NCBI GenBank assembly: GCA_000999095.1
Contig: LCFP01000004.1
Coordinates: forward strand, 80,930-144,929
Origin: Candidatus Gottesmanbacteria bacterium GW2011_GWA2_43_14
GTDB taxonomy: Bacteria; Patescibacteriota; Microgenomatia; 2-02-FULL-39-11
Reading direction: 5' to 3'
Length of the DNA: 64,000 nucleotides
Part shown: one piece after another, positions 37,652-57,181 of the stretch
How the letters are laid out: each line of letters opens with the position of its first letter
How positions within the stretch are numbered: the first letter of the stretch is position 1
Notes under the pieces: generated by a model
What the model was told of the DNA's origin: nothing
The model's database searches: none
What the model saw: only the letters and a program-made list of their open reading frames with translations
Made by a program: the position numbers and the translations under genes

Positions 37652-37870
37652 TTACGTATTGAGGTTGGCAGTATAACCGGCCTTTTTGATGATTTCTTCG
37701 ATTTTCTTCTCGTCCAGCACTTCCGGATCAAATTCTACTTCCGTTAGGGCTTTGGCATAATTGGTTCTGGCTGATTTGATACCATGGTTATCTTCAAGCT
37801 CAAAATCAATGTTTATGGCGCAGGCAGTGCAATGCATATCCAGTATTTTCCAGACGGTTTTTTTAGTCAT
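37652..37870 (-). CDS. heavy-metal-associated (HMA) domain metallochaperone, CopZ-like
   Basis: MxCxxC motif (DMHCTACAINI). Confidence 0.75.
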   Translation of the reverse strand: MTKKTVWKILDMHCTACAINIDFELEDNHGIKSARTNYAKALTEVEFDPEVLDEKKIEEIIKKAGYTANLNT

Positions 37871-37874
37871 AATG

Positions 37875-38900
37875 CTAAATCACTTTGATGACTCCGTTAT
37901 ACATACCCATACTGCAGGAGAAAGTCAGGTCCTGGGGAATTTCCGGAGCAGTGAAAGACAAGCTTGTTTTACTACCCGTTCTGACGACTTTTTGGATATT
38001 TAATTTGGGGATAACGAAAGCCTGGATGCAGCCTTCTCCGTCATTATTAATAAGATTCAGTTTTACCTCGGACCCTTTTGCCACCGTAATATTTTCAGGT
38101 GAATACCCGCGTGAATTAAAGTAAATAGTGGCTTCCGAAACAGGCGTGGCAGCCTTGGCCAAAACCTGGCCGGAACAATTGCTTAAAACCGTACAGTTAA
38201 AATCTTTCCATAAATTATTAAGGGTGAAGTTGGAGCCCGACAAAACCGCGGCCGCATTAATGTTAAAAACAGCCAAAAAGATAATGGCAAAAGCGGCTAT
38301 TTTGCCAAACGAGGTTTGGAACAGGGAACTTAATTTGGTGGTTAATAAACCTAAAATAAAAAAGACGGGCGCAGTACCAAGAGTAAAAGCAAACATAATT
38401 ATGGCAGAATAAGCAGGGTTGGCTGAAACCAGTGCTAAAGCCATCATTGCCTGAGTGGTGCCGCAGGGGATAAAAATTGTCAAAGCACCCAAAAAAGCAG
38501 GTGCAAATAAATCACCGCTTCTCGATTGCCGGCGGATGATCCTCAACAGGAAGCGGGGAGGCTGGATAATGAAATAACGGAAAATGGGGTGAACATTCAA
38601 TAAATTAAGTGCAGTGCCGATCATAAAGATCCCGACGGCTATTTGCAGAAAGACTTGGGTTGAGACTGACAACCGGAAGAAAGAGCCGAAAATTCCCAGC
38701 AACGCACCCAAGACAGTATAGGCGATGATTTTGGCTATCAGGAAAGCTAATATCGGCCAAGCCCGTCCTTTGGTGGCGATACCTCTCAGTCTGTCTTCTT
38801 CATTCTGTACAAGTGTGGTTGCCAGCAGACCGCCCTGGACGGCCATGCAGGATAAACCGCCAGTAAGAAGCCCTGTTAAAAAAACGGTCCACAAATTCAT
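37875..38900 (-). CDS. membrane protein: DsbD_2/CcdA-like Cys-pair transmembrane domain fused to a C-terminal cupredoxin-like Cys/Met metal-binding domain
   Basis: TM region with conserved GGLSC and IPCG motifs. The extracytoplasmic C-terminal domain has a GEGC...FSCSMGMYNGVIKV motif. It is a paralogue of 45805..47643 but lacks the HMA domain. Confidence 0.55.
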   Translation of the reverse strand: MNLWTVFLTGLLTGGLSCMAVQGGLLATTLVQNEEDRLRGIATKGRAWPILAFLIAKIIAYTVLGALLGIFGSFFRLSVSTQVFLQIAVGIFMIGTALNLLNVHPIFRYFIIQPPRFLLRIIRRQSRSGDLFAPAFLGALTIFIPCGTTQAMMALALVSANPAYSAIIMFAFTLGTAPVFFILGLLTTKLSSLFQTSFGKIAAFAIIFLAVFNINAAAVLSGSNFTLNNLWKDFNCTVLSNCSGQVLAKAATPVSEATIYFNSRGYSPENITVAKGSEVKLNLINNDGEGCIQAFVIPKLNIQKVVRTGSKTSLSFTAPEIPQDLTFSCSMGMYNGVIKVI

Positions 38901-38949
38901 CGGTAACTATCAATTTTAACATTGATGAAGACTGATGCAAATAAAGAGG

Positions 38950-39084
38950 TTATTTCTTTTTATTGATTTCTTTCCAGAAATAAATGATTCCCAGAACCAG
39001 AAAAGTGATTATAAGCAGCCAGGTTACAGCTCCCAAAAAGCCCCAACCTCCCATCATGCCGGAGTAACCCCAATTAGCCATCAT
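38950..39084 (-). CDS. small membrane peptide (44 aa), Met/Gly/Trp-rich N-terminus
   Basis: Not in the ORF track because it is under 60 aa. Strong SD sequence (AGGAGGTG) 7 nt upstream of ATGATG. Sequence MMANWGYSGMMGGWGFLGAVTWLLIITFLVLGIIYFWKEINKKK with one TM helix. It lies between two operon genes. Confidence 0.45.
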   Translation of the reverse strand: MMANWGYSGMMGGWGFLGAVTWLLIITFLVLGIIYFWKEINKKK

Positions 39085-39132
39085 ACAAATCACCTCCTGA
39101 TTCTATTATAAATGAAATCTTTAAAAGTAAAA

Positions 39133-39558
39133 TCAGATTTTGCGTTTAAGTCGGATGAGATAAATTATACTCGCGAGATTGGAAAGAATTGCCAACAGTA
39201 AAATTTCTTTCTGGAATTGGATTAAGAGTGAAGTGAGAAGACTTAAGCCTAACAGCGGCAGGACATCAGTCAGATGATGGGCGCAGCAGGCGATCATACC
39301 CAGAGTCGAAGTTGAAGAATTGCCCACCATCATTTTACGGCTGCCCCCTTTAATTTTATTTTTTAAGCTGACATAAAGCCCGGATTGAATCCCGAAACCG
39401 GCAGAGAGTGAAGTCATGTAAGGCCAAAGTGTCGAAAATTGCCACCAGGCAGTTTCAAAAGAACCTGTCAGAAGTCTCATAAGGAAAAAATAAAAGGTCA
39501 AAAGAAAGGATGAAGCAACAATCCCCATGAAAATGGGGGAGGAGAGAAATTTAGTCAT
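39133..39558 (-). CDS. hypothetical membrane protein with an intramembrane ACCAHH motif
   Basis: 141 aa and 4 TM segments. A vicinal Cys pair followed by His-His (GMIACCAHHLTD). Confidence 0.45.
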   Translation of the reverse strand: MTKFLSSPIFMGIVASSFLLTFYFFLMRLLTGSFETAWWQFSTLWPYMTSLSAGFGIQSGLYVSLKNKIKGGSRKMMVGNSSTSTLGMIACCAHHLTDVLPLLGLSLLTSLLIQFQKEILLLAILSNLASIIYLIRLKRKI

Positions 39559-39564
39559 AGTCTT

Positions 39565-39837
39565 TCAACTTTTTTTAGCTAGATAATTATAGGTTGCGGC
39601 AATAAAATAACCGGTGATCCAGGCTGATATGCTGAAAGTGATAAAGCCGAATAGAACAGTTCCGATTGCAGGCGGCTGTCTGTTCCAGACAGTGGTCACA
39701 TCCACGCCGTGCATCCAGGATTGGGCAAATTGACGGTAAAGATCCGGTGCCAAAAAGACCAGCAGTGTGCAAATAAGATAATAGGCAGCTGCCACAATGG
39801 CCAAAGTATTGGCTAATACCGATTCCTTAAATTTCAT
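39565..39837 (-). CDS. hypothetical small membrane protein
   Basis: 90 aa and 2-3 TM segments. Same operon. Confidence 0.4.
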   Translation of the reverse strand: MKFKESVLANTLAIVAAAYYLICTLLVFLAPDLYRQFAQSWMHGVDVTTVWNRQPPAIGTVLFGFITFSISAWITGYFIAATYNYLAKKS

Positions 39838-39840
39838 GTT

Positions 39841-40302
39841 TCACCCCCTTTCCCCTTCAACTTTAAATTCCCTTCTCGGGATGCCTGATAAATTCTTAAT
39901 TATTATGGCGAAAGGAAGTTCAATTTTTTCAAAAACCGCCTTTGCTTTTTTATGATGGGTTTGTCCAGAAACTTCAATTTTTAGAGACGGATAAAGTCCT
40001 TCGTTTTTTTCAAGATAAATACCTTTCTGATAATCATAAGCATCCAGGTTGACATTATGGGTATCAAAATTCAAATTAAAATTCCAACCATCCTCATCCC
40101 CTCCGGCATAAGCGACGGAAACGCTGACCCCGCCGGCTGCACCGGCCGAAGGACTGACAACCACAGAGTCAGTGATTTGATTAGAAGTGATCAGGCTTGA
40201 GGTATCTGTATCTTTTGCTTTAGTTAGGGTAAATAGAAGAATAATAGCTAGAATCCCACTGATTAAGAATAAAAACCAATATTCCCAGGATATTTTTTTC
40301 AT
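39841..40302 (-). CDS. TM-anchored extracytoplasmic protein (possibly FixH/YtkA-like beta-sandwich)
   Basis: N-terminal signal anchor, then a 120-aa Gly/Ala-rich and beta-rich domain. Family assignment is speculative. Confidence 0.35.
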   Translation of the reverse strand: MKKISWEYWFLFLISGILAIILLFTLTKAKDTDTSSLITSNQITDSVVVSPSAGAAGGVSVSVAYAGGDEDGWNFNLNFDTHNVNLDAYDYQKGIYLEKNEGLYPSLKIEVSGQTHHKKAKAVFEKIELPFAIIIKNLSGIPRREFKVEGERG

Positions 40303-40318
40303 CTATTCTTCCAGTGTA

Positions 40319-41260
40319 TCAGACGCCGCAGCCGCCGCCGCCTTCAACTTTGGGAAGGATGCCTTCCGACTGAAGTTCCTTGTTGATAGCCTGGTAACCG
40401 GCGCCACTCGAGTAAGGACTGCCTAATGCCTCCTTGGGATCTACATCCTGCCAATCCTCACCCTTTTTGCTTTTGAAGTACATGGCCAGTTCCACATAAG
40501 TCTGGGGGAACCACTGGGAATTTAAAAGCAGGGCTTTTTTGTATATTTCATTCCGGCTCATACCCTGGACAACGGCCAGCTCAATATAGCCCAGCATGGC
40601 CGCCCCGTGATTGCAGTCGGGAAAGTAGGTGGAATTGCCGCAGCAGGGCCGGTAAATATTTTGGGCAATTTCAATCACTTCCTTTTCCTGTTCGGGCGTT
40701 AACGGCAGGATAGGGAAACGGTTGAAAAGTTTACCGCCTTCCTCCTTTCCCAAAGTCCAACCGCCGGTTGAAGCGTAATTGCCGGAATCTTCCTTCATCG
40801 GCCCTTCTTCCAGAAATTTGGTTTTGTTGGCAATTCCCAGCGGCCAGAGGAGGTTGAGGATGATGGCATTGTTTTCTTTGGTGACGATTATCTTTTCGGA
40901 AGAATCCTTATCAAAAAGATCCGTAAATTCGGCAGGTAAACCTCCGCGGCTTTGATAGAGATCTAAAAATTTTTGCTTATCTATAGCGCCTGTCTCGACC
41001 ATTTTTTTGACGGTCTCACCAAAGGAGACACCGAGGTTGAATTTATCAGGCAGAACTTTTTGGGTTACTTCTGAAAGCAATTGATCGGACTTAATAGAAG
41101 CCGTTTTTTCTGCTGGTGTTTCACTTTCCGGATTAGTAGCTTTCCGGTAATTAGAAAGTTTCGGGATAAGCACAAACAATAACAGGCCGATCAAAAGTCC
41201 CGTGACAATACCGGTCAAATAAGATTGATGTTTATTTTCAGAATTATTTTTTTTCACCAT
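40319..41260 (-). CDS. TM-anchored extracytoplasmic protein with a PCCGNSTYFPDCNHG motif (uncharacterised)
   Basis: 313 aa with a single N-terminal TM segment. Conserved-looking Cys cluster (RPCCGNSTYFPDCNHGAAM) and a C-terminal GGGGCGV. No family recognised. Confidence 0.45.
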   Translation of the reverse strand: MVKKNNSENKHQSYLTGIVTGLLIGLLLFVLIPKLSNYRKATNPESETPAEKTASIKSDQLLSEVTQKVLPDKFNLGVSFGETVKKMVETGAIDKQKFLDLYQSRGGLPAEFTDLFDKDSSEKIIVTKENNAIILNLLWPLGIANKTKFLEEGPMKEDSGNYASTGGWTLGKEEGGKLFNRFPILPLTPEQEKEVIEIAQNIYRPCCGNSTYFPDCNHGAAMLGYIELAVVQGMSRNEIYKKALLLNSQWFPQTYVELAMYFKSKKGEDWQDVDPKEALGSPYSSGAGYQAINKELQSEGILPKVEGGGGCGV

Positions 41261-42059
41261 GGCCTACCTCCTTTATCATAATTTTGATAAATATAACCAA
41301 AAGGGCAATCAATAACAGGTCTATCAGGGGATTTCCCAGCCGATTGGACAGATTAAAGATAAATCTTCTAAGGGATTCTCCGTAGGCCATATTCTTATCC
41401 ATCTCAATTTTTCCCGTCAGAGCCATCAAAGCGATAATCACCGCCGAGACCATGAAAGTAACAGAAGCCAATATTTTCAGCGGTTTTTCCCAACTACTCT
41501 TGATTTTATAGAGGTATTTATTGCTCAGCTTTTCATAAAAAAGAGACAGGAAAAAAAGAGGGAAAACGATTCCTAAGACATAGGCTATTGAAACAATCAG
41601 GGAAGACAGAAGGGTCGGTGATAGTGAGGACAGGGTGATAGCGGCAAAAAGAACCGGGGCGCAGCAAGAGGAGGTGATACCGGAAAAAAGTCCCAATATA
41701 TAAGTTGAGAGGACAGTTGTTTCTTTGGGCATGGTGTAATGGGGCAGGGGAAGCATCAGTTTCACTTCAAATAGAGTCATCAACCCAACCAGAAACATCA
41801 CTAAAGCCCCAAGAAGATATGTCGTGGTATGGAATTTATCAAAGAAAGAGACGATAATCGAAGCGCCCAAAGCCACCGGTACCAGGATTGATCCCAAACC
41901 CGCGGCAAAAATCATCGTCAGAAAAACCACCCTTTTCCTATCTTTGAAAATTGTTCCCAAATAAGAAGGAAAAAGAAAAGTAATACAGCAGGGAGCAAAC
42001 AAGGCCACCATGCCGCCCAAAAAAGAGGCAGTCAGGGAAACTCCGAAGAAAAGATTCAT
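41244..42059 (-). CDS. CcdA/DsbD-like membrane protein with two vicinal Cys pairs
   Basis: Polytopic membrane protein. FAPCC in TM1 and SSCCAP in a later TM, at the positions where CcdA carries SPC/PC motifs. Confidence 0.5.
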   Translation of the reverse strand: MNLFFGVSLTASFLGGMVALFAPCCITFLFPSYLGTIFKDRKRVVFLTMIFAAGLGSILVPVALGASIIVSFFDKFHTTTYLLGALVMFLVGLMTLFEVKLMLPLPHYTMPKETTVLSTYILGLFSGITSSCCAPVLFAAITLSSLSPTLLSSLIVSIAYVLGIVFPLFFLSLFYEKLSNKYLYKIKSSWEKPLKILASVTFMVSAVIIALMALTGKIEMDKNMAYGESLRRFIFNLSNRLGNPLIDLLLIALLVIFIKIMIKEVGHGEKK

Positions 42060-42065
42060 AAGTAA

Positions 42066-42587
42066 TTATTCGACTGTGGCATTGATATTGAATATCAAGG
42101 TTTCATTTTCCGGGTCATTGGTGTTGAGTGAGGCTTGTCTGGTAACCAGTCCTTTGACCGGCATAATAAACGGCCGGTAAGTAACAAACAATTTGGCTGT
42201 CTCTCCCGGCGGCAGTTGAGCCTTCCAGTTGTTTTTTGAATGCATGGTAAATTCCGGACTAATGACTCCATTGATATCCAGTTTGGCAAATGTACAGTCG
42301 CAGGAAGTCGATAATTTATAGAGTTCCAAAGGCTTGGAGCCGTTATTTTTTATGCTGAATTCAGCTGTCCTCTCATCACTGACTTTCATCTTGCCCAATT
42401 CTTTTAAATTAGAATCAATTGAAGCCGCCGGTTTTTCCGTGTCACCTTTGGTATAAGAGATAGCATCTGATTGCGTGGCTCCCTTTCCTTCTTTAACGGC
42501 AAAGACAATAATCAGTAGGAATACCAGCAAGGTGAATCCGCCAATTACCAATAATATTAATTTTTCTCCTGAGAAGCGTTTGAACAT
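42066..42587 (-). CDS. DUF1573-domain protein (TM-anchored, extracytoplasmic)
   Basis: Signal anchor plus a DUF1573-like beta-sandwich region with an SCDCT motif (LYKLSTSCDCTFAKL). Confidence 0.55.
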   Translation of the reverse strand: MFKRFSGEKLILLVIGGFTLLVFLLIIVFAVKEGKGATQSDAISYTKGDTEKPAASIDSNLKELGKMKVSDERTAEFSIKNNGSKPLELYKLSTSCDCTFAKLDINGVISPEFTMHSKNNWKAQLPPGETAKLFVTYRPFIMPVKGLVTRQASLNTNDPENETLIFNINATVE

Positions 42588-42644
42588 ATTGGCTTAATAA
42601 TACAGCCTGGATTATTAAGAAATTATGAAGATTTTTTGGGAAAA

Positions 42645-45566
42645 CTATTCAAAAGCCATGGAGGAGCTGATTTTGGCAAAACCGCCGAAAATTATGCTGA
42701 AAAGAATCAGCATCGCAAGCGGAGCAATCAAAGACAAGTAATTCCGTTTGCCCGGCCGGAAATATTTTAAAGTCAGGGAATTGGTAACGACGGAGATGGA
42801 GGATAAAGCCATGGCCAAACCTGCCAATTCGGGTTTAAGCACAAGCCCCATGAAAGCGAAAGCCCGGGCAGCGACGGGGATGCCAACGATGTTATAAAAG
42901 AGGGCGAAAAACATGTTTTGCTTAATTTTACTCATCGTATCGTGGGAAAGATTGATGGCAGTAACTACATCCCGCAGGTCGTTTTTGACGATGACGATAC
43001 CGCCTGTTTCCATCGCGACATCAGTTCCCGAACCCATGGCAATCCCTAAATCAGCCTGAGCTAATGCCGGCGCATCATTGATGCCGTCGCCGACCATGGC
43101 CACAATTTGTTTTTTATCCTGAAGTTTTTTGACTTCATTGGCTTTGTCTTCAGGTAAAACTTCCGCCAGAATATTGGTAATGCCGACCTGATCAGCAATA
43201 GCCTGGGCAGTCCGTTCATTGTCGCCGGTGATCATATAAACTTCGATATTTCTTTTTTTAAGCTGATCGATAGCTTCCCGGCTGGTTTCTTTGACGGTAT
43301 CGGCAACCGCAATCGCTCCCAGGATCTGATTTTTATCTGCCAAAAGCATGGCGGTTTTACCCATGTTTTCCAATCTAATCAGTTTGTCGTGAAGTTGACC
43401 GAGCTCAACTTTGGCGACATCTGTCATCAGTTTCCGGTTGCCCATATAATAAGTTTCGCCTTTGATGGTGCCGGTGACTCCGTGACCGGGTATGGCCTTA
43501 AAATTCTCGACATTCTTCATGAGCATATCTTTTTCCCGGGCAAAGCCTACAATGGCTTCCGCTAAAGGATGTTCAGAAGATTTTTCCAATGAAGCGGCAA
43601 TTTCCAGGATTTGAGCCTCTCCGGTTTCAGTGTAGCTTTCGATATCGGTCACAATCGGTTTGCCGTTGGTTAAAGTACCGGTTTTATCGAAAATGATGGT
43701 TGTTATCCGGCAAATCTTTTCCAAGGGTTCGCCGCCTTTTATTAAAATGCCGTGTTCCGCGCCCTTACCAGTACCGACCATCAAAGCGGTCGGAGTCGCC
43801 AAGCCCAAGGCGCAGGGACAGGCAATGACGATAACGGCCGTGAATGCCATCAGGGCAAATGATAAGGAAGCCCCAAAGATCAGGTACCAGACGAGAAAGG
43901 TGCCGATGGCGATAATGATGACGGCCGGGACAAACCAGGCTGAAATGCGGTCGGCGAAGGCCTGAATGGGTGCCTTGGAACCCTGGGCTTCCTCAATTAA
44001 ACGGATGATTTGGGCTAGCGTGGTTTCGCTGCCGACCCGGGTTGCCTCAAATTCAAAGCTGCCCATTTTATTGATGGTTGCCCCGACCACATTATCACCG
44101 CTGTTTTTTTCAACAGGTATGCTTTCGCCGGTAATCATCGATTCATCGACGGAAGATGAGCCTCTGATAATTTTGCCGTCAACCGGGATTTTTTCGCCCG
44201 GCCGGACCAGCAAAATGTCGCCTTTGACCACCTGATCCAAAGGAATATCAACCGTATTGCCATTTCTTATAACTCTGGCGGTTTTTGGCTGAAGGCCCAT
44301 CAATTTTTTTATGGCATCTGATGTTTTACCCTTGGCTCTAAGTTCCAGCCATTTTCCCAAAAGAACAAAAGTAATCAAAAAGGCGGATGTTTCAAAATAC
44401 AATTCCGGTATTTTTTCTATCACCGGCCCGAGGAGAGTACCTGTTAGGGAGAAATAACTCAAATAATTGAAAGCGCTGTAAAAATAGGCAGCCGAGGTGC
44501 CGATGGCTATCAGACTGTCCATATTAAAGGTTTTCATCCTGAGAGCGGACCACATGCCTTTATAGAAACCGTAACCCAAAACAAACTGCACCGGGGTCGA
44601 CAGGATGAAAGAGAGGACGCCGACATAAGGATTAAAGAACAGTTTGCCGATTGCACCCGGGAAAAAGTCGAACAGCATGAAATAAAGCAATGGCAAGCTC
44701 AGGATCAGGCTGGAAATGAACTTCGAAAAAAGCATTCTAGTTTCTTCCTGACGTTTTCGCGTTTCAAATTCGGTATCTTTTTGATCAATCTGACTGGCTT
44801 TATAACCGCTGTTTTCCACCGCTTTGATCAGATTTTCGACAGTCGCCTGGTTAGAGTCAAAGTCAACCAGCGCCTTTTCGGCGGCAAAATTGACGTTGGC
44901 GGAAGAGACGCCATCAACCTTTTTAAGGGAACGTTCAATCAGTTGGGCACAGGAAGAGCAGTGCATACCGGAGAGAGATAACGAAACTCTTTTGCGTATA
45001 TCAGGCGTTTCAGCCGGAGTACTTATTTCAGGAATTTGTGATTTTTTTGCCGGTATTTGATCAGGTTTATTCGACAAGACGTTATCTTGGGAGGGGAGAG
45101 GGTTGAATAGCGGGGCATTATCCAAAGATCCGGAAAGTTTTGACATAAAATTCTTCACTTCTCCATTACCGAAAGATTGTTGGTATTCGGATTTTTGGAA
45201 TTTGCTGATTTTACCATCAAAAAATGGTTCACCATGATCATTTAGAAAAACACGCCCTTGCGCTTCAACTCTTGATTCAATTTTAACCGGAACACTGCTT
45301 CTTGTCACTTTTGCCCCAGCGGTGCTTTTATTAGCTTCCGTTCCAACACTTTCTTCCTGGAGTGCTTCATAGCCTGCCCGTTTGACCGCTTCGATCACTT
45401 CGGTCAGGCTGTTTTTACTTTGGTCAAGAGTGAGAACGGCCAGCTGTTTTTGGAAACTGACATTTATATCGGAAACACCCGGTAAAGCCGCCAGTTCCTC
45501 TTTCGTAACCACTTCACAGGAGCGGCAATGCATGCCTTTGATATTTAATTTCAGCTTTTTTTTCAT
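42645..45566 (-). CDS. copA: copper-translocating P1B-type ATPase with two N-terminal HMA domains
   Basis: Two MxCxxC HMA domains ([18 protein letters not shown]), TM6 CPC ([12 protein letters not shown]), DKTGTLT, the YN and MxxSS TM signatures, and GDGINDAP. Confidence 0.9.
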
Positions 45567-45579
45567 TAAGAAATTTTCT

Positions 45580-45792
45580 TCAGTTTATAACCTGATAATC
45601 CGTACCTTCCAGTGATTTCTTAATTTCCGTAAGATTAATATCACGTCTGGCGGTAACTTGCGCCTCACCGGTCAGGGAAACGTTAAAATCCAAAACACCT
45701 TCGATTGAATTGACTCTGCGTTTGATAAGTTTCAGACAAGCGTCACAGGTGATGCCGGTAACGTAGAATTTTAGCGTATTTATATCGGACAT
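45580..45792 (-). CDS. copZ: HMA-domain copper chaperone
   Basis: GITCDAC MxCxxC-type motif. 70 aa. Immediately upstream of copA. Confidence 0.8.
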
Positions 45793-45804
45793 GAAAAGAC
45801 TCCT

Positions 45805-47643
45805 TTAAACAACCTTAATAATGCCGCGGGGTACCCCCATGGCGCAGGTAATCGGGTATTCACCGGGAGTTTTCGGGGTGAATTCAAGAACTATCGTTTC
45901 TCCCTTTTTAAGAAATTGGGGATTATCGGCTAAACCGGGGACGGCAATTGTTGCCATACAGCCGGAACCGTTGTCTTTGACTTCAATTTCCATTCTGACG
46001 GGCTTTCCCGCATTAACTTCAAAAGCATTTGGACTGATATCAGTATTTTGGGTATACACAGTTTTAATGATTTGCTCATCTTTATTTTCTTGAGCTTTCA
46101 CCGGAGTGACATTTGTGTTTTGGACCTGCTTTTGCCCTCCACCTCCGCAACCGCAGCCTCCGCTACCGCAAGACGCACCTCCGGCAGAATTAGCGGTTTT
46201 AACAGCGGCGGTGTCATCGGGGAGAGTCGCAGCCTGTACTTGAATACCATTGACATCATTAACCACCCTGATCGATCCGGAAAACATGCCCATACTGCAG
46301 GTAAATCGGATAACGCCTTCTTCGGAAGGCGTAAACTCAATCACATTTTCACCAGGATGGAGCAATTTTTGCACGCCGATTTTGTCGGCCACAATTGAAG
46401 CGGCACAGGTGTTGGGATCTTTGGAATCGATAACCCAGCGGACAGGTACGCCTTTTTTAACCGTGAAGACTTTCGGATTGTAACCTCCGGCATCCTGGAC
46501 CATACGGATGACCTGTTTGCCGTTTTCCAGTTGAACTCCTTCTGTATCAGCTGCTGCCACAACAGTTGTTTTCCCGGGGAAATTAAAATAACCCGGATTT
46601 AAGCCGGTCAGATTCAGGCCATTGTTAAGATTGAAAAGACTTAAGACGATAACAACGACACCGGCAATCCGGAAAAAACTTTGAGCAAAAGCTCCTTTGA
46701 CCAGCGATGTCAAACCGCCAATTCCCAGAAGTCCAGGTGCTGTCCCCAAGGCAAAAGTGCCCATGATTAAAGCGCCCGAAACAGGATTGCCTGTCGTCAT
46801 GGCAAAAAGCTGCATCGCCTGGGTGAAGCCGCAGGGCAGAAAAAAGGTCAGGCCTCCCATAAAGACAGAATTTTTATTGCTGTATTCAGCCTCTTTTTTT
46901 GAATTAATTCTCAAAATTTTTCCCACTCCGGCAGGCAGAGTCAGTTTAAAATCTTCCAGTCTGGGGGAAAGCCCGGTTAGCTGTAAACCCATCAAAAGCA
47001 TAACCATGCTTACAAAAACCGTCAGCATACCAAGGCCGAAACCGGACAGCTGGAAAAAAGAACCAAACCAACCGATTATCGCACCGAAAAAAAGATAAGA
47101 ACCTATCCTGCCAAGATTAAAAAACAGATGCGGTTTGAATTTTTCAAGAGGAGTAGCTAAAGAATGCTTTTCGGCAAACCTGGCAGAAACACCCAAAACC
47201 AAGCCGCCGATTAAAGCCATGCAGGTGGAGAAGCCGGCTGTTAACCCGATTAAAAGCACTACTAAAAGGCTGGAAGGATGATTGGAGATGGCCGGCAGGG
47301 CAATTTTAATGCCGAAAATGTCTAGGAGAACATAGCCTAAAAAGACGGCAATCAGAAAAATTATTATTTCCTGATAAATATTAAAATCGCGGGTAAATAA
47401 AGGTTTTTTTTCGGGTAGGCCGATTGAATAGCCTGCTCCTTCGATAGTCGAGTTGACCGCTTCATAGTTTAGATTACCTTTATAAGCGATTTCCGCTAAG
47501 CCCTTTTTTTGGCTGACGGCAACTTTTTTGACACCCTCAAGAGAGCAGAGTTCACCTTCAATCAAAAGCTCGCAAGAACGGCAATGCATGCCTTTTATCG
47601 GAACGGATGCTGTTTTTATCATGTTAAAAATCTTACCAGTCAA
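45805..47643 (-). CDS. fusion protein: N-terminal HMA domain + DsbD_2/CcdA-like Cys-pair membrane domain + Cys/Gly-rich linker + two cupredoxin-like Cys/Met domains
   Basis: HMA domain ([10 protein letters not shown]). TM core with GFSTC and FFLPCGFTQAM motifs. Linker ASCGSGGCGCGGGG. Two repeated extracytoplasmic domains ending FTCSMGMFSGSIRVV and ITCAMGVPRGIIKVV, each with an upstream conserved Cys (NTCAAS / GSGCMA). Confidence 0.6.
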   Translation of the reverse strand: MTGKIFNMIKTASVPIKGMHCRSCELLIEGELCSLEGVKKVAVSQKKGLAEIAYKGNLNYEAVNSTIEGAGYSIGLPEKKPLFTRDFNIYQEIIIFLIAVFLGYVLLDIFGIKIALPAISNHPSSLLVVLLIGLTAGFSTCMALIGGLVLGVSARFAEKHSLATPLEKFKPHLFFNLGRIGSYLFFGAIIGWFGSFFQLSGFGLGMLTVFVSMVMLLMGLQLTGLSPRLEDFKLTLPAGVGKILRINSKKEAEYSNKNSVFMGGLTFFLPCGFTQAMQLFAMTTGNPVSGALIMGTFALGTAPGLLGIGGLTSLVKGAFAQSFFRIAGVVVIVLSLFNLNNGLNLTGLNPGYFNFPGKTTVVAAADTEGVQLENGKQVIRMVQDAGGYNPKVFTVKKGVPVRWVIDSKDPNTCAASIVADKIGVQKLLHPGENVIEFTPSEEGVIRFTCSMGMFSGSIRVVNDVNGIQVQAATLPDDTAAVKTANSAGGASCGSGGCGCGGGGQKQVQNTNVTPVKAQENKDEQIIKTVYTQNTDISPNAFEVNAGKPVRMEIEVKDNGSGCMATIAVPGLADNPQFLKKGETIVLEFTPKTPGEYPITCAMGVPRGIIKVV

Positions 47644-47730: not shown

Positions 47731-49149
47731 GTGAAAGTTTTTATTTCTCCAATTTTCGTTGTTCTAATCTATGCCTTTCTGTTAAGAATTTATAATCTCA
47801 ATTACAATTCTCCTTTTTTGGATGAAGCTCAATATCTAATATTAGGACGGAAAGTTTTGGTAGGGCATTGGCAGGAAAGCAATCCTTTTGCCTGGGTAGG
47901 AGGGATGCCATTGTTTTATCCGACACTTTCGGCTGTCTTTGGTTTTTGGGGCATCACAGGCAGCAGGTTGTTAAATGCATTATTGGGCACAATATCCGTT
48001 TACCTTTTATATTTAATCGTCAGATATTTGAAATTATCCAATAATGATCAGGATAATGAAACCTCAGCTATCATTGCCGCCAGTTTTTTGGCAGTTTTAG
48101 CCGTGCCTTTGTACTTAAGCCGTCTGGCTATTTACGATATGCTTTCATTTACGCTGCTTTTAGCAGGATTGGTATTGCTGCTAAAAAGCTTAAAGTCGGA
48201 AAAACAAAAAGACTGGCGGAAGGAAAATTGGTATTTTGGGGCAGCAGTTTTTATAGCCGCTTCATATCTTGCAAAGTATATCTCCTTTATCATATTTCCG
48301 GTGGTTGCTCTGGCGGCTTTTTGGCAAGCAAAAATTAATGGTAATCATGAAGTCCGACTTTATTTAAAGTATTTTTTGCTGCCGCTGTCGACAATTGTCA
48401 TAGGCTATGCTCTTTGGCAGTATCCGGCGCTTATCCACTTTCAAGAAGAACAGATAAGCAAGGCAACCAGCCACTCAGTGGTAATTCTTAAAAGCTTTTA
48501 TTCTTACAGCCTGCCCGTTCTGCTGCCGGCGGCAATCGGAGCACTTTTGCTGTTTTTCAAAAGTAGCCGGACAGCCCTTGTTTTAATTATCTTAGCTCTG
48601 ACCCCGCTTGCCGTCCATCTGGCTACCAACAATTCAGCTGCCAGCGGGCAGCATTCATATTTGACGGTCATTTTCCTACTGCCATTGGCCTCATATGGAT
48701 TACAGTCATTTATAGGGAGGTGGCCCAGATTTGGCAACCTGTTATTAGGTTTATTGTTTATCGCCACTTTTTTCTATTCTTACTCCCAACTTTTGAAGCT
48801 TGAGAGAGCCTGGCCGAATACTGATAAAGCCATGGACTTTTTAAAAACAAGAACATCCGATCACGAAAAAATACTCTCTTCACAGGATGACGTGACACTT
48901 TTGGCGCTTCCCAATTTCAGGGATGAGAACATTACGGGAATCTTTGATTTTAAATATAAAAATCTGACAGGTTCCCAAGCATACAGCCTGGCCCTGTCCG
49001 AAAATTTCTTTGACTTTGTCCTTTTGGACGACCACGCCCACGGGACAATTGAATCGACAGTCTTGAATTCAATAACGTTCCATTACCGCCCAATTTACAA
49101 TGAGGAGCCTTTTACCATCTACCATAAGTCAGCTATCGCCCAAGGATGA
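47731..49149 (+). CDS. ArnT/PMT-like (GT39/GT83 family) membrane glycosyltransferase
   Basis: 472 aa with about 11 TM segments. N-terminal loop motif (NSPFLDEAQYLILGRK) resembling DE/DD-loop lipid-linked sugar transferases. Confidence 0.6.
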   Translation: MKVFISPIFVVLIYAFLLRIYNLNYNSPFLDEAQYLILGRKVLVGHWQESNPFAWVGGMPLFYPTLSAVFGFWGITGSRLLNALLGTISVYLLYLIVRYLKLSNNDQDNETSAIIAASFLAVLAVPLYLSRLAIYDMLSFTLLLAGLVLLLKSLKSEKQKDWRKENWYFGAAVFIAASYLAKYISFIIFPVVALAAFWQAKINGNHEVRLYLKYFLLPLSTIVIGYALWQYPALIHFQEEQISKATSHSVVILKSFYSYSLPVLLPAAIGALLLFFKSSRTALVLIILALTPLAVHLATNNSAASGQHSYLTVIFLLPLASYGLQSFIGRWPRFGNLLLGLLFIATFFYSYSQLLKLERAWPNTDKAMDFLKTRTSDHEKILSSQDDVTLLALPNFRDENITGIFDFKYKNLTGSQAYSLALSENFFDFVLLDDHAHGTIESTVLNSITFHYRPIYNEEPFTIYHKSAIAQG

Positions 49150-50186
49150 AAAGAGCTCTTTTCCTGATATTAGCTGCCGGGGTTATTTACTTTTTATGGG
49201 AAAGCAGTGACAGAACCGGCATACCTTCGCCTAATCCTGATCATAAGCTGTCATATACTGGGTCAATAGGTATCGGGAAAGATAAGCTGGACCGGTCCCT
49301 TTTCTCATTTAAGGCCAATTTAACTAAACTGGACTATGTATCTTTGTACTGGTACAACCTGGATGATGATGGACGGATCAGCCGCGATGATTCAATATCT
49401 GCGGAGATGGAAGAAGAAGTTTTGTCGCTTTCTAAAGAAAACAACCTCAAAATAATGATGGGAATAGGGGATCACGGTGATGTCGGCCGGGCCGACGAAA
49501 TTTTGGATGATAAGGACACACAAAAAGAACATTTTTCTGATGTTTTGGAAACAGCAGCCGAAAAGGGTTACGACGGGGTGACCATTGATTACGAAAACCT
49601 TAAGAATAACCAGGAAGAAGAGTTTACGGAATACATACGCACCCTCTCAAAAGAAATTAAAAATACAGGAAAAATATTGAGTATATCTATACCTGTTGAG
49701 ACCGAAGGCAGGGTAACTCACGGCATCAATCTGACTGAGATAGGCAAAATTGCCGACCGACTGCACCTTAATATATATGAAGAGTACGGCCAGGATACGG
49801 GGCCCGGGCCGATCGCTTCTTTTGAATGGGTAAATGCAGTCATTAAAAACGCTCTTAAACAGGGGGTTCCGGCTGAGAAAATTATTTTAGGCACAGCCCA
49901 TTCAGGGCACGACTGGATCATTGAGCCGGAAGAAGAATTTTATAAGGATATGAGAACAGCCGAGACGTTAACAATTCTTGCGGGAACCGGAGTTGAGCTT
50001 CGTTGGGATGAGGCAAAAAGAGCTAATTTTTTTGAATATACCGACGAAGGGCAAAAGCACCAAGTCTGGCTGGAAGATGCCAGTTCGTTCAAAGCCAAAA
50101 TTGATCTGGCCAAAGCTTACGAGCTGGGAGGAATCTTCATCTGGTATCTGGGCGGCGAAGACCCCGGGATATGGGAAATTCTCTAA
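49146..50186 (+). CDS. glycoside hydrolase family 18-like protein
   Basis: GH18 catalytic DGxDxDxE motif (YDGVTIDYENL). TIM-barrel size. Confidence 0.65.
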   Translation: MKRALFLILAAGVIYFLWESSDRTGIPSPNPDHKLSYTGSIGIGKDKLDRSLFSFKANLTKLDYVSLYWYNLDDDGRISRDDSISAEMEEEVLSLSKENNLKIMMGIGDHGDVGRADEILDDKDTQKEHFSDVLETAAEKGYDGVTIDYENLKNNQEEEFTEYIRTLSKEIKNTGKILSISIPVETEGRVTHGINLTEIGKIADRLHLNIYEEYGQDTGPGPIASFEWVNAVIKNALKQGVPAEKIILGTAHSGHDWIIEPEEEFYKDMRTAETLTILAGTGVELRWDEAKRANFFEYTDEGQKHQVWLEDASSFKAKIDLAKAYELGGIFIWYLGGEDPGIWEIL

Positions 50187-51318: not shown

Positions 51319-51497
51319 CTAGCATAATTTTGGGGATCAGCTTCAAAGGTTTTTTGGCAGTTTTCCGAGCAGAAATAGTAGGTTTTGCCATCATGGTTGC
51401 TTTTATATTCCGCTTTTTCAGGATCGACCATCATTTTGCAAACCGGATCTTTAACCTTGTTTTTATTGGCGGAAAATAATTTATCTAAGAAACTCAT
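51315..51497 (-). CDS. YHS-domain metal-binding protein
   Basis: DPVCKMMVD...YYFCSENC is the YHS/TRASH motif. Start placed at the ATG at 51497, which forms an ATGA overlap with the upstream DUF305 stop. Confidence 0.7.
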   Translation of the reverse strand: MSFLDKLFSANKNKVKDPVCKMMVDPEKAEYKSNHDGKTYYFCSENCQKTFEADPQNYAS

Positions 51498-51865
51498 GGA
51501 TTTGCCTCCCATTCTTTTTGCCACATTTTCATTTGTTCAATTTCGTTCTCTTGAGCTTCTATTATATCATCTGCCAAATTTTTGATCTCTTCATGCATGC
51601 CTTTTGCTTTCGCTTCTTTGGCCATTTCAATGGCGCCTTCATGATGGACCATCATCGAGTTCATGAAAGCCATATCAAAATCTTCCCCTTCAGCCTTTTC
51701 CAGTGATTGCATCATTTCATTCATGCTGGAATTCATGGTCATCATGCCGCTGCCACCCATCATATTAGCAGGTTGAGCCTGCTGTCTGTTGTAACCTGTT
51801 ATGAGAACTGTTAACAGAATCCCGGCGATAAAAGTTGTAATTGCCAATAAATAATTATTTTTCAT
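51494..51865 (-). CDS. DUF305-family protein (Met/His-rich, copper-resistance-associated)
   Basis: Signal anchor. Met-rich stretch (MMGGSGMMTMNSSMNEMM) and the DUF305 motif MMVHHEGAIEMA. SD sequence GGTGA upstream. Confidence 0.7.
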   Translation of the reverse strand: MKNNYLLAITTFIAGILLTVLITGYNRQQAQPANMMGGSGMMTMNSSMNEMMQSLEKAEGEDFDMAFMNSMMVHHEGAIEMAKEAKAKGMHEEIKNLADDIIEAQENEIEQMKMWQKEWEANP

Positions 51866-51879
51866 TTCAAATCACCGCC

Positions 51880-51900
51880 ATCTATAGATAAGTATCTATA
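51880..51900. promoter_or_regulatory. palindromic operator-like site in the DUF305 promoter region
   Basis: ATCTATAGAT (10-bp perfect palindrome) overlaps TATAGATA-ag-TATCTATA (8-2-8 inverted repeat), 15-37 nt upstream of the DUF305 ATG. A related AGATA-tt-TATCT palindrome lies at 50223..50234. Confidence 0.4.
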
Positions 51901-51949
51901 AATATTAGCATAACAAAGATTAAGATTCCATGAAGAAAGACAGATTCAG

Positions 51950-52612
51950 TCAGACCCGATGGTGATCGATGCCGCGGTAGGCTTTAATAAATTTTTCTAT
52001 TCTCTCTTCATTAAACTCATTGAATTTATCCAACTTGGTCCAGGCTGTCAGGGCGATTTTAGTATCAAGCTGAGGGTAGGGGGCAAGTATTACTTTATCC
52101 TTATATTTTTTTATGACGGCTGTTAATCCGGCAACCAGTTTTTGGCATTCATCTTGCCCTTCGGCACTGTCAGTGGCCTCTTTTTGGCTGTCCCCATCCG
52201 GCGTGCAATTATACTGTACCATAATCCCGCCGTCCTCCAGATTATGAAGCTGGAGTTCGTCAGGAATAGGGGACCCGCTTACTCCCCAGGGGGCTTTATT
52301 ATTCACGTGGGTACCTGAAGTCGGAGGCAGGGAATTGTAAGATTCGTGGGTATCGGTGATGTTTTGGATATGTTCATTGCCTAAGGTGGGGACAAATTCC
52401 CCGGGCTTCGGTTTAGAGGCTTCTCTGATAAACCAGTATCCGCCAGCAAGAAACACCAAACAAGCGGCAATAATTATTCCGTATTTCTGCAACTTACCCA
52501 GCCGCAGCTGTTTATTCATCTGTTCCCGGTAAAATGCACGTTTTATCTTCCTGCGTTCTTTTTTGGGTAATCCTTCAGGTAAATCAGGTCTGTTTTTCAT
52601 AACAGATTTCAC
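51950..52612 (-). CDS. DUF3105-domain protein
   Basis: N-terminal TM segment, then LGNEH...PPTSGTH...HNLEDGG motifs typical of DUF3105. Confidence 0.65.
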   Translation of the reverse strand: MKSVMKNRPDLPEGLPKKERRKIKRAFYREQMNKQLRLGKLQKYGIIIAACLVFLAGGYWFIREASKPKPGEFVPTLGNEHIQNITDTHESYNSLPPTSGTHVNNKAPWGVSGSPIPDELQLHNLEDGGIMVQYNCTPDGDSQKEATDSAEGQDECQKLVAGLTAVIKKYKDKVILAPYPQLDTKIALTAWTKLDKFNEFNEERIEKFIKAYRGIDHHRV

Positions 52613-52725
52613 AAACTTTCAGTAAGGTGTTCTGAATTATTAGTAAGGACAAAAATATAGGGAAAAAGCCTAAAAAGAAATAAGGATAAACTTAAGAAAC
52701 CGGTGAAATATCCATAAATTTATAT

Positions 52726-53466
52726 TTATTTTAAGGCTGCATCAATCATAGGCTTGATACTTTCATAGGGAAGAGCCCCGGGTATAAGCTGGGTACTGCC
52801 ATTTTCAGTCAGAATGATTGTACCGGGAGTTCCAGTTACACCTTCTTCACTTCCTTTGGCCATCTGGTCCTGCACTTTTTGGGTATACTTACCCGAGTCA
52901 AGACATTTTTGGAATTTGGTCTGATCAACCCCTACTTCATTGGCCAGGGAACCCAGTTTGTCCAGCGCAAAGCCGGTGCCATTGGAGGTCGTACGCTCAA
53001 AAATGGCATCAATATATTTCCAAAAAACGTCATTGCCTCCCAATTCGTTGACACACCAGCCTGCCTCCGCTTCTTTTTGTGCATTCTGATGAAAGTTTAA
53101 AGGGTAATCACGATACACCCATTTTACTTTATCACCGTATTCTTTCATGACCTGCTGCATGGTGGGATGAAAATTTTTACAGTAGGGACATTCCAGATCA
53201 GAGTATTCAATAAGTGCTACTTTGGCGTTTTTGTTGCCTCTCACGCGGTCATCACTTTCCAATTCCGGCTTTTTGGCTGCAGGTTGGGGAGAGGGGATTT
53301 GCGCGGAAACGGTGTCGTTTCCTCCTGTCCCGGCCTGGATTTCCGCCACGCCCGGGTTTCCTTTTTCCAGAAGTTTAACTTTGGTGTAAAGGGAACCGAT
53401 TGCAAACGAAGCGACAATTAGAAGGGCAACCAGAATTAATGAGCTTTTAGATTTTACTTCAGACAT
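52726..53466 (-). CDS. DsbA-family thiol:disulfide oxidoreductase (BdbD-like)
   Basis: Signal anchor. Thioredoxin-fold CxxC (ECPYCKNF). Confidence 0.8.
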   Translation of the reverse strand: MSEVKSKSSLILVALLIVASFAIGSLYTKVKLLEKGNPGVAEIQAGTGGNDTVSAQIPSPQPAAKKPELESDDRVRGNKNAKVALIEYSDLECPYCKNFHPTMQQVMKEYGDKVKWVYRDYPLNFHQNAQKEAEAGWCVNELGGNDVFWKYIDAIFERTTSNGTGFALDKLGSLANEVGVDQTKFQKCLDSGKYTQKVQDQMAKGSEEGVTGTPGTIILTENGSTQLIPGALPYESIKPMIDAALK

Positions 53467-53468
53467 AT

Positions 53469-53485
53469 TACTACAAAGTGTAGTA
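53469..53485. promoter_or_regulatory. BlaI/CopY-type operator (perfect 7-3-7 palindrome TACTACA-aag-TGTAGTA) abutting the dsbA-like start codon
   Basis: Perfect inverted repeat located 2 nt upstream of the ATG (minus strand) of 52726..53466. A near-identical site lies upstream of the BlaI/CopY-like gene (54817..54833). Confidence 0.5.
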
Positions 53486-53510
53486 GTAAAGCTGACGGTT
53501 TGTCAATAGG

Positions 53511-54446: not shown

Positions 54447-54813
54447 CCGGATTGGCCAATAATTTTAACAGGCGCTTTTTTTTATCCTTGGGGAGCCGTT
54501 CGATCGATTGGGCAAAAGAGGCAACCGCCGAATCGCCAAAGGAAGAGAAAAACTGGCGCATAAATGACCGGGCGGCGCTTTTACCGTAATCGACTTTTGA
54601 AATTTTGGGAAAGTAGTACAGGCGGGAATCATGAGTTTCCTTCAAGACTAAGCCTTTTTGATAAAGGCGGGAAAGGATGGTGGCCACGGTAGTATAAGCA
54701 AGTTTTTTCTTAAGGTTGATTTTTCTCACGACATCACGCACAGAACAATCACCGCATGCCCAGACAATTTCCATAATCAGTTGTTCCAGATGGCTTAATG
54801 ATTTGACGGACAT
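54433..54813 (-). CDS. BlaI/MecI/CopY-family transcriptional repressor
   Basis: Penicillinase-repressor winged-helix N-terminus (LSHLEQLIMEIVWACGDCSVRDVVRKI...TTVATILSRLYQKGLV) and a C-terminal dimerisation helix. Confidence 0.8.
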   Translation of the reverse strand: MSVKSLSHLEQLIMEIVWACGDCSVRDVVRKINLKKKLAYTTVATILSRLYQKGLVLKETHDSRLYYFPKISKVDYGKSAARSFMRQFFSSFGDSAVASFAQSIERLPKDKKKRLLKLLANPDENK

Positions 54814-54816
54814 ATT

Positions 54817-54833
54817 TACTACAGAGTGTAGAA
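54817..54833. promoter_or_regulatory. BlaI/CopY-type operator (TACTACA-gag-TGTAGAA), autoregulatory position
   Basis: TACA/TGTA dyad typical of BlaI/MecI/CopY boxes, 3 nt upstream of the repressor ATG. It shares a roughly 20-nt conserved block (CTACAC-T-y-TGTAGTAA-ATATGTC) with the site at 53469. Confidence 0.5.
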
Positions 54834-57161: not shown

Positions 57162-57181
57162 AATTTAATGATACAAGATTT

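Follow-up and report, generated by a model that had tools for sequence, protein, structure and literature searches.

This work concerns a 64,000-nt stretch of DNA from a Candidatus Gottesmanbacteria genome—called the window in the following—and, within it, a run of 12 head-to-tail open reading frames (ORFs) on the minus strand, from position 47643 down to 37652, which are named g1 to g12 in their order on that strand (Table 1). We read this run as a composite Cu(I) defence operon, a reading to which we give about an even chance. Four parts would make up such a system: an efflux core around the Cu(I)-exporting ATPase CopA, a reductant supply by a CcdA line, an ATPase-coupled acceptor unit, and a cassette that pairs a DsbD_2–cupredoxin fusion protein (D-C) with an HMA metallochaperone. 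The reading builds on gene order, family assignments, invariant residues, synteny and a fusion of g9 with g6; topology, electron flow, metal binding, the direction of transfer and co-transcription are what we infer from these.

Efflux core and conserved gene set

The metal of the operon is given by its ATPase. g3 scores 632.8 bits against the NCBIfam model TIGR01511 (cutoff 397) and bears all P1B-1 signatures as defined in the Arguello classification—DKTGT, CPC in the fourth transmembrane (TM) helix, Nx6YNx4P in TM5 and Px6Mx2SSx5N in TM6. These signatures stand for Cu+/Ag+, and the metal of the operon is therefore copper. The small proteins g2 (6.8e-09, 36.4 bits, cutoff 24.8) and g12 (3.7e-11) both match the Pfam model HMA and both stay under the NCBIfam CopZ equivalog cutoffs; hence, they are better described as HMA chaperones than as members of one named CopZ subfamily. 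The efflux step follows from these family memberships: CopZ-type HMA domains (g2, g12 and the N-termini of g1 and g3) would bind cytoplasmic Cu(I), and CopA would pump it out.

The surroundings of CopA are conserved far beyond this genome. The g6 motifs IYRPCCGN and FPDCNHGA were searched in the GTDB species set, yielding 539 stretches—516 of them encoding a g6 relative—of which nearly all are labelled Patescibacteria or candidate phyla radiation (CPR). For comparison, 80 loci were fetched and five more came from exact-protein look-ups, giving 82 non-redundant loci, whose ORFs were classed by iterated profile searches seeded with the window proteins. The order g4>g5>g6 is found in 37/82 loci, and at least two of the three genes are adjacent in another order in 28 more. 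Adjacent g9>g7 occurs in nine of the 82 and g7-g8-g9 in four, while D-C is followed by HMA in 15 of these CPR loci and a small cupredoxin gene directly precedes the ATPase in 11. For a P-type ATPase, the count is 55/80 loci overall and 26 of 31 among those with 18 kb or more (counted within 10 kb in long loci); the median distance from g6 is 1.5 kb. Synteny with copA is thus strongly retained, and locus L006 (g6 79% identical) even repeats the entire 12-gene order; locus L015 (g6 55%) keeps a cupredoxin, CopA, g4, g5, g6, g7, g8, g9, D-C and HMA. Because these gene sets come back in genome after genome, chance does not account for the arrangement, and the proposal of an earlier note on this DNA, that copper-efflux genes are embedded here in membrane and extracytoplasmic proteins with Cys/His motifs, holds for a conserved set across loci. 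Related loci also carry CsoR repressors, thioredoxin with thioredoxin reductase, DsbA-like proteins, redoxins, YHS and ICMT genes: the L001 island has thioredoxin, thioredoxin reductase and CsoR, and the L094 and L095 islands have redoxin, glutaredoxin and DsbD_TM genes.

Outside the CPR, g6 homologues of 36–40% identity are encoded on Burkholderia contaminans, B. thailandensis and Paraburkholderia fungorum plasmids. These Burkholderia-type proteins keep RPCCxNST...DCNHG and the C-terminal Cys and bear a twin-arginine signal (TRRRFL), which supports an extracytoplasmic location of g6 homologues. The B. contaminans gene directly follows a P1B ATPase and belongs to an island that also encodes CueR, CcdA, peroxiredoxin and thioredoxin, ICMT, TlpA, SCO and DUF2933. 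Most of these neighbours are found in B. thailandensis too, though no ATPase is adjacent there, and in P. fungorum ATPases are found a few kb from the g6 homologue.

The compared loci display some further features. Single-domain, N-terminally anchored CupA-like cupredoxins (C...CGMNM)—mostly of 117–121 amino acids (aa), longer if the ORF extends upstream—lie directly 5' of copA in L008, L013, L015, L016, L026, L045, L047, L056, L062 and L083. These pairs mirror the pneumococcal cupA-copA arrangement. Type-1-like (H..C..H..M) cupredoxins are found instead in L004, L031, L052, L074 and L078. Ten contigs (L009, L013, L017, L018, L021, L022, L025, L028, L031 and L045) have CPR-type gene content with g6 identities of 46–62% and are titled as metagenome-assembled genomes of "uncultured Gammaproteobacteria" or "Chloroflexota"; they are probably mislabelled or misbinned.

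Within the window, ORF calling agrees with the 12 co-directional minus-strand genes described before. The intergenic gaps from g1 to g12 measure, in order, 12, 13, 57, 6, -17, 16, 3, 6, 39, 49 and 4 bp, such that the previously given upper limit of 50 bp applies to all of them except the copA–DUF1573 gap of 57 bp. Likewise, Pfam and NCBIfam bear out the identities given for HMA, DsbD2-cupredoxin, CopA and DUF1573, and the motifs PCC and SCCAP (g5), PCCG...CNHG (g6) and ACCAHH (g9) are located where they had been reported; a FixH-like g7 is the identity that fails. Searched as single sequences, g5, g6, g7, g9 and g10 have no Pfam match. None of the minus-strand intergenic gaps of the operon holds a terminator-like site. 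The GC content of the operon is in line with that of the remaining window, and composition gives no sign of recent horizontal acquisition. For g1, a start at the ATG at 47622 is probable over the TTG at 47643.

Regulatory sites were also considered. A 21-nt imperfect inverted repeat (42585–42627, 81% complementary) occupies most of the 57-bp copA–g4 gap; its RNA fold is weak (-5.4 kcal/mol) and it has no trailing T-run. It may act as an operator or mark a processing site. Inside the 49-bp g10–g11 gap lies a promoter-like element (38913–38941, minus strand) with TTTGCA, a 17-nt spacer, TAAAAT and an extended -10 TG. Given this element, the g11–g12 cassette, self-contained in other phyla, may have its own promoter. 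A CopY box (TACANNTGTA) was not found in the window, and tblastn of the window gave no match to a CsoR homologue.

Table 1. The 12 genes of the operon, with positions in the 64,000-nt window
Gene	Position	Strand	Assignment
g1	45805-47643	-	HMA, an extra TM helix, 6-TM DsbD_2 and two CupA-type cupredoxin domains
g2	45580-45792	-	CopZ-like HMA metallochaperone with CxxC motif (GITCDAC)
g3	42645-45566	-	CopA, P1B-1 Cu(I)-exporting ATPase with two N-terminal HMA domains
g4	42066-42587	-	N-terminally anchored Ig-like DUF1573 protein, S-C-x-C-T motif
g5	41244-42059	-	CcdA-family thiol:disulfide electron transporter, 6 core TM helices and 1 extra
g6	40319-41260	-	Membrane-anchored extracytoplasmic protein, family without Pfam model, probable CcmH-like helical module
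g7	39841-40302	-	N-terminally anchored, probably beta-rich extracytoplasmic domain with three invariant His
g8	39565-39837	-	DUF5676 two-TM protein
g9	39133-39558	-	Four-helix membrane protein, family without Pfam model, invariant Met-Cys-Cys-His
g10	38950-39093	-	44-aa peptide (ATG at 39084) with one TM helix
g11	37875-38900	-	6-TM DsbD_2 fused to a CupA-type cupredoxin predicted to face outward
g12	37652-37870	-	HMA metallochaperone (MHCTAC), downstream partner of the DsbD_2-cupredoxin gene

A probable CcdA line of g4, g5 and g6

A family profile of g5, built from 40 relatives, reaches the structure of Thermus thermophilus CcdA (PDB 5VKV) at E=8.5e-23, with query residues 8–216 on chain residues 2–202, that is, over the 6-TM core. 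P23-C24 and C133-x-P135 remain invariant throughout these 40 sequences and correspond to the two catalytic Cys motifs of CcdA in the alignment; the adjacent partner cysteines C25 and C132 are conserved in just 40–70%. As a single sequence, the protein stays below the Pfam model DsbD_TM. By this alignment, g5 is an ordinary CcdA homologue—a true one, where the earlier note had spoken of a CcdA-like protein.

The predicted extracytoplasmic protein g4 matches Pfam DUF1573 (PF07610; 1.4e-10, 41.5 bits, cutoff 26.1), and its residues S95, C96, C98 and T99 (S-C-x-C-T) are invariant in the family alignment. All 33 of 33 family members match the NCBIfam model OS_HP2 (seleno)protein—at best with 3.5e-14, which is below the curated cutoff—and the matched segment spans the CxC motif. 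If selenocysteine substitutes for one Cys of this CxC in OS_HP2 relatives, this would point to a redox-active site. We propose from these motifs that g4 might be an extracytoplasmic thiol-redox partner of CcdA. An identity of g4 with DsbD-alpha was tried and rejected, as the family profile searched against the PDB gave generic HYDIN/Ig-like domains alone. On a marine CPR contig (L095, 13–849), a rhodanese–DUF1573 fusion adjoins a second DUF1573 gene and CsoR, which hints at a sulfur-transfer or persulfide link for this CxC Ig-fold family.

The g6 family has the invariant residues R-P-C-C-x-N-S-T-x-F-P-D-C-N-H-G, plus a Cys in a Gly-rich C-terminal tail (GGGGCGV). It is probable that g6 holds a CcmH-like module without being a member of the CcmH family. 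Its N-terminal domain is large, extra and has no structural match, and the profile finds no meaningful match among PDB sequences. A full HMMER scan of 1.84 billion representatives puts the family at 615 clusters (50% identity). Among the top 150, about 25 are extended at the N-terminus by a 4-TM domain and are called long forms here. P0337 (603 aa) and its cluster members join a g6-family protein to a C-terminal BNR/Asp-box beta-propeller extension.

Most likely, the g4-g5-g6 module moves electrons and not metal, because g5 is a regular CcdA whose vicinal partner cysteines are unconserved and because g4 and g6 look like thiol-redox proteins. CcdA would carry electrons from cytoplasmic thioredoxin to the CxC Ig-fold protein g4, to the CcmH-like g6, or to both. 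This supply, as suggested by homology, motifs and synteny, would hold outward-facing cysteines in the reduced state against the disulfide formation that copper catalyses there.

A putative electron line of this kind raises the question whether the accessory proteins handle copper ions at all. They could serve envelope disulfide repair of the Scs/DsbD type that is simply co-regulated with copA, and would then reduce or isomerise surface proteins which copper has damaged. CcdA, the OS_HP2-type CxC protein, the CcmH-like module, and the thioredoxin, redoxin and DsbA genes of related islands would fit this, and the Scs system sets a precedent for copper-induced envelope thiol reductases (PMC10907172, PMC3322552, PMC8900818). 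However, the CupA-type Cu(I) ligands described below are invariant in all D-C proteins with a cupredoxin domain, whose HMA partner is obligatory, and Met-Cys-Cys-His of g9 and the His3 of g7 look like metal sites, not like dithiol–disulfide couples. We therefore deem a pure repair function very unlikely. Still further from the evidence is a reductive branch of cytochrome c maturation—CcdA with a CcmH/ResA-type partner, merely located beside copA. The g5 and g6 assignments would suit it. Yet, neither the window nor the 2585 ORFs from 85 related loci contain the haem-handling motif WGxxWxWD, and in the same set CxxCH does not rise above noise, which makes cytochrome c maturation unlikely in the first place; annotated CPR loci also lack Pfam matches to ResB/CcsA and cytochrome c, g6 lacks the CcmH CxxC, and the linkage to P1B ATPases extends across phyla. 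With no maturation machinery alongside, this assignment is extremely improbable.

Candidate copper sites in and outside the membrane

Two proteins of the operon, g1 and g11, are D-C proteins. Against Pfam, g1 matches HMA (7e-10), DsbD_2 (1.9e-31, 109.9 bits, cutoff 24.9) and, in two stretches, Cupredoxin_1 (2.6e-22); g11 matches DsbD_2 (PF13386; 3.2e-30, 106 bits, cutoff 24.9) and Cupredoxin_1 (PF13473; 2.8e-12). The D-C family profile hits CupA (2mry, 3.4e-13) and the cupredoxin metal-binding domain of Streptococcus pneumoniae CopA (4f2f, 1.1e-11). It does not reach CcdA 5VKV at E<1 and, hence, D-C proteins are distinct from g5. In 30 D-C relatives from five phyla, a Cys in TM1 and the Cys of a P-C-G motif in TM4 are invariant. 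The cupredoxin ligands C291, C329, M331 and M333 (Cys plus Cys-x-Met-x-Met) are invariant in the 28 of 28 relatives with a cupredoxin domain; the other two of the 30 are HMA–DsbD_2 proteins without this domain and hence without the Cu site. As for topology, the odd loops of g11 hold 12 Lys/Arg and the even loops two, which by the positive-inside rule predicts an N-out/C-out protein with the cupredoxin outside. In g1, the extra TM helix at 93–111 ahead of the DsbD_2 core would place the HMA domain in the cytoplasm.

Full-length D-C homologues (31–47% identity) are also found on plasmids of Ca. Chlorohelix, Deinococcus, Tsukamurella, Mycolicibacterium and Streptomyces, where they are all annotated as "sulfite exporter TauE/SafE family protein". 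In 5/5 plasmid loci examined, D-C is followed by a small HMA gene. Neighbours of these pairs are P1B ATPases, CcdA with TlpA or peroxiredoxin-family genes, and BlaI/CopY plus M56 pairs; on the Tsukamurella plasmid the pair sits just upstream of merA, and in Deinococcus it sits near merB.

Taken along the membrane normal, the cassette would string soft ligands from one side to the other: the Cys2 of a cytoplasmic chaperone, two Cys within the membrane and, outside, the Cys2Met2 of a CupA-type site. This arrangement in g1 and in g11–g12 suggests, as the most likely role of the cassette, a transfer of Cu(I) by ligand exchange in one or the other direction. Metal hand-over is favoured here because the chain from Cys2 over membrane Cys to external Cys2Met2 has an obligatory HMA partner, not a thioredoxin partner. 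If the operon holds a thiol-lined Cu(I) conduit, a pair of the g11–g12 type is its strongest candidate.

The second place where copper might be bound in the membrane is g9. This family counts at least 3346 homologues—all hypothetical. M88, C91, C92 and H94 in helix 3 and Q40, Q58, Q116 and N127 elsewhere are invariant in 41 sequences, and the AF2 (AlphaFold2) model gives four helices at a pLDDT of 71. A vicinal Cys pair together with Met, His and invariant polar residues points to a soft-metal site more than to a dithiol–disulfide relay. The protein P0298 is a g9–g6 fusion, with the g9 profile on residues 7–144 (E=8.6e-35) and a g6 domain at 178–419. In Woesebacteria and a marine CPR contig (L094, L095), a P1B ATPase is followed by g9 and then by g7, with a 4-nt stop/start overlap of g9 and g7. 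This gene order with its overlaps and the P0298 fusion tie g9, g6 and g7 together and connect them with the ATPase. A homology between g9 and the 4-TM domain of other long g6 forms, which carries CPxC at the place of the g9 CC pair, was considered and rejected, as hhalign gives E 0.03–0.2, which is not significant. Against plasmids, tblastn of g8 and g9 gave no match.

The partner g7 has H82, H116 and H117 invariant in its family alignment. An identity as FixH finds no match; instead, 10/17 family members weakly match DUF5643 (best 1.2e-06), and the g7 profile has no meaningful match among PDB sequences. For g8, the Pfam match to DUF5676 is clear (3.7e-21, 76.3 bits, cutoff 27.6); it bears a conserved Cys in TM1 and a conserved His in the outer loop and lies beside g5, g6 or g7 in 25/80 loci. 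The longest ORF of g10 has 47 aa from a GTG, with AGGAGG 8–9 nt 5' of the ATG at 39084, a spacing that argues for the 44 aa stated in the earlier note. Its Met/Gly/Trp-rich N-terminus is predicted outside and is followed by one TM helix and a basic LWKxIxKK tail. Such peptides of 43–57 aa (MMG..MMGGWG, TM helix, LWKxIxKK) occur in at least eight other loci, and g10 is a real conserved small gene with a strong Shine-Dalgarno sequence.

From these residues we propose that g9 provides an intramembrane Cu(I) site which might act with g6 and g7, and that g7 might be its Cu-binding partner. Together with g6 (Cys3-His and tail Cys), g7 (His3), the Met-rich g10 and perhaps g8, g9 would receive or buffer Cu at the outer face. 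This would constitute the ATPase-coupled acceptor step.

Instead of being detoxified, copper could be delivered: the cluster would mature or metallate extracytoplasmic cuproproteins in a Sco/PCuAC/TlpA/CcdA-like manner, with CopA supplying Cu and the thiol module readying the Cys ligands. Plastocyanin-type cupredoxins directly after g6 in L004 and L031, type-1-like ones in L052, L074 and L078, and Burkholderia g6 islands with SCO, TlpA, CcdA and c-type cytochromes speak for this. However, the operon in the window has no obvious cuproenzyme target. Its CopA bears two HMA domains and comes with CopZ, and its relatives sit with CsoR or CueR—company that is typical of detoxification pumps. The plasmid islands, with merA/merB, ArsR-type regulators and CDF-type cation-efflux genes, likewise point to resistance. 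We consider delivery quite unlikely, and return to the defence reading.

A different view was taken in the earlier note, which combined g5, g9 and the DsbD_2 proteins into one ATP-independent Cu(I)/Hg(II) thiol relay in the style of MerT/MerF, parallel to CopA and defined by vicinal cysteines. Vicinal Cys are indeed present in TM helices of g5 and g9, and HMA and CupA-type domains flank the DsbD_2 core. The position of D-C+HMA upstream of merA (Tsukamurella) and near merB (Deinococcus) is where mer operons usually hold a transporter and an HMA protein, and the CPxC of the 4-TM domain in long g6 forms, at the g9 CC position, echoes the CC and CxxC pairs of Mer transporters. Still, the unconserved second vicinal Cys of g5 and the redox-like character of g4 and g6 do not fit a single relay: g5 is an ordinary CcdA with g4 and g6 as putative thiol-redox partners. 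Mer transporter models do not rise above noise, MerA is not in the window, and Cu(I) would have no obvious driving force to leave passively when copper is in excess outside. We hence judge the single relay unlikely. An ATP-independent Cu(I) relay is left plausible for g1, g11+g12 and g9-g6-g7 only.

This leads to a narrower version. g1 and g11+g12, and separately g9-g6(-g7), would be unrecognised classes of thiol-lined membrane conduits that pass Cu(I) or another soft metal, such as Hg(II) or Ag(I), without ATP, by ligand exchange from a chaperone in the cytoplasm to a chaperone domain outside it or the reverse, and are kept active by the CcdA line. We regard this as possible, if tentative. 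The lack of recognisable MerT, MerC, MerF, CopC and CopD, already stated in the earlier note, is borne out by the family models: none of the 12 proteins matches CopC, CopD or FixH, and for g5, g8 and g9 the results for MerT, MerF, MerC, MerE, CopC and CopD are at noise level. As candidates for Mer transporters, g8 (E 0.04 against merT_RC607) and one g9 relative (E 0.03 against MerE) were dismissed as noise.

Several points weigh against the composite reading. The functions of the accessory proteins are deduced from sequence and models, and all topologies come from the positive-inside rule, which is ambiguous for the single-pass proteins g4, g6 and g7. Inside the operon there is no thioredoxin-fold acceptor for the CcdA line; the nearest DsbA-like gene is 5 kb off, at 52726–53466. 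The likeness of g6 to CcmH is weak: hhalign gives E 0.066 and aligns the first CcmH Cys with Arg204, Y-R-P-C-C stands in place of the CcmH CxxC motif (L-R-C-x-x-C; PF03918), Pfam CcmH gives no match, and a Foldseek search of the PDB with the g6 model has no match at E<2. As a member of the DsbD superfamily with one Cys each in TM1 and TM4, like CcdA, DsbD_2 could pass electrons, not metal, to its own cupredoxin. Finally, co-transcription of all 12 genes is assumed, with a promoter-like site lying in the g10–g11 gap.

Known systems and neighbouring metal genes

In its logic, the operon has its nearest analogue in Scs; in its parts, in CupA/CopA, CcdA and CcmH; and in the mechanism of the cassette, in MerT/MerP. 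The Scs systems (ScsB/ScsC/ScsD; Salmonella, Caulobacter, Proteus) also link envelope thiol redox to copper, with a DsbD-superfamily transporter feeding extracytoplasmic Cys proteins, some of which bind Cu(I) (PMC10907172, PMC3322552, PMC8900818). The transporter of the operon is, however, a minimal CcdA, and its putative partners are an Ig-fold CxC protein (DUF1573) and a CcmH-like Cys3-His protein, not thioredoxin-fold proteins. Further differences are the monoderm-like CPR host and the placement of the module in one operon with copA. As a thioredoxin-fold protein and a DsbD alpha domain are both absent from the operon, the likeness to Scs is functional only.

With CupA/CopA of S. pneumoniae (2MRY, 4F2E, 4F2F), the homologous cupredoxins of g1 and g11 share the Cys and the Cys-x-Met-x-Met. 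CupA acts on the cytoplasmic side, whereas the g1/g11 domain stands at the C-terminus of DsbD_2 and is predicted outside, and the CopA of the operon uses HMA domains, not a cupredoxin. The mercury uptake relay MerT/MerP resembles the cassette in having a soluble Cys2 domain on one side, a Cys pair in the membrane and a second thiol site opposite. There is no sequence relationship, and only the HMA parts match MerTP/MerP models; the membrane domain of the cassette has 6 TM helices of the DsbD/LysE superfamily with a single Cys each in TM1 and TM4, and its HMA protein is cytoplasmic, not periplasmic. The cytochrome c branch of CcdA shares a true CcdA (g5) and, in part, a motif with g6, whose helical module may resemble the fold of the CcmH periplasmic domain. 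Here, haem-handling proteins and cytochromes c are absent, and g6 has R-P-C-C...D-C-N-H in contrast to L-R-C-x-x-C...D-S-N as well as an extra N-terminal domain. Finally, TlpA/Sco/CcdA modules of Actinomycetota and Burkholderia also combine a P1B ATPase, CcdA, a thiol reductase, D-C+HMA or a g6 homologue, BlaI/CopY with M56, and ICMT; the CPR operon has no TlpA, other thioredoxin-fold protein or Sco, and g4 and g6 take their place.

A literature search found no published study of g6, g9, DUF5676 or the DsbD_2–cupredoxin fusion, and g6, g9 and the fusion appear uncharacterised. Copper handling outside the cytoplasm is poorly understood in single-membrane bacteria. The present comparison offers candidates for what accepts Cu(I) from CopA there: the g6 and g9 families, a cross-phylum D-C+HMA cassette, and a CcdA line with non-thioredoxin partners. 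It also gives grounds to correct the widespread and misleading annotation of D-C proteins as "sulfite exporter TauE/SafE". If the conduit holds true, it would be a new transporter mechanism reaching from CPR to Actinomycetota, Deinococcus, Chloroflexota and Burkholderia. CPR genomes are very small and yet keep 12–25 copper-related genes, which suggests that copper and thiol stress matters for a surface-attached lifestyle. Since homologues occur in culturable Burkholderia, Streptomyces, Deinococcus and mycobacterial relatives, these hypotheses are testable genetically.

A few kb away from the operon, at 51494–62318 on the minus strand, the window bears a second metal module. It holds genes for DUF305 (Met-rich), DUF3105, a DsbA-like CPYC protein, an M56 BlaR1-like peptidase with a BlaI/CopY-family repressor, a second P1B ATPase, ICMT, DUF302, rhodanese-like and bPH_2-like proteins, DUF2933, and a histidine kinase with a response regulator. 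This regulator shares 55% identity with the one that immediately precedes g4-g5-g6 in L001. Several genes of the second module adjoin the copA operon in L004, such that the window seems to hold one split metal island. The second P1B ATPase (54867–57161, minus strand) has an N-terminal HMBD (PF19335) in place of HMA and CPD in place of CPC in TM4, with P1B-1-type motifs kept in TM5 and TM6. A 115-aa membrane protein (59348–59695, minus strand) adjoins DUF2933 and carries H-L-I-C-C-G in its first TM helix; it has no Pfam family and no counterpart among the small proteins of the Burkholderia and Actinomycetota islands.

Some of these genes recur in metal islands elsewhere. The pair of BlaI/CopY-family repressor and M56 (BlaR1-like) protein is found in the CPR genome (window 53511–54813, minus strand) as well as in Streptomyces and Mycolicibacterium metal islands (L088, 4443–5788; L090, 15188–16509); the repressor of the window has no C-terminal Cys motif, and the CopY box is absent there as mentioned. 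ICMT-family genes occur in copper islands from CPR to Burkholderia (window 57182–57847; L004, 62–727; L094, 2697–3362; L091, 4646–5305). Between the two metal modules of the window, at 47731–50186 on the plus strand, lie a PMT-family glycosyltransferase gene and a GH18 chitinase-like gene.

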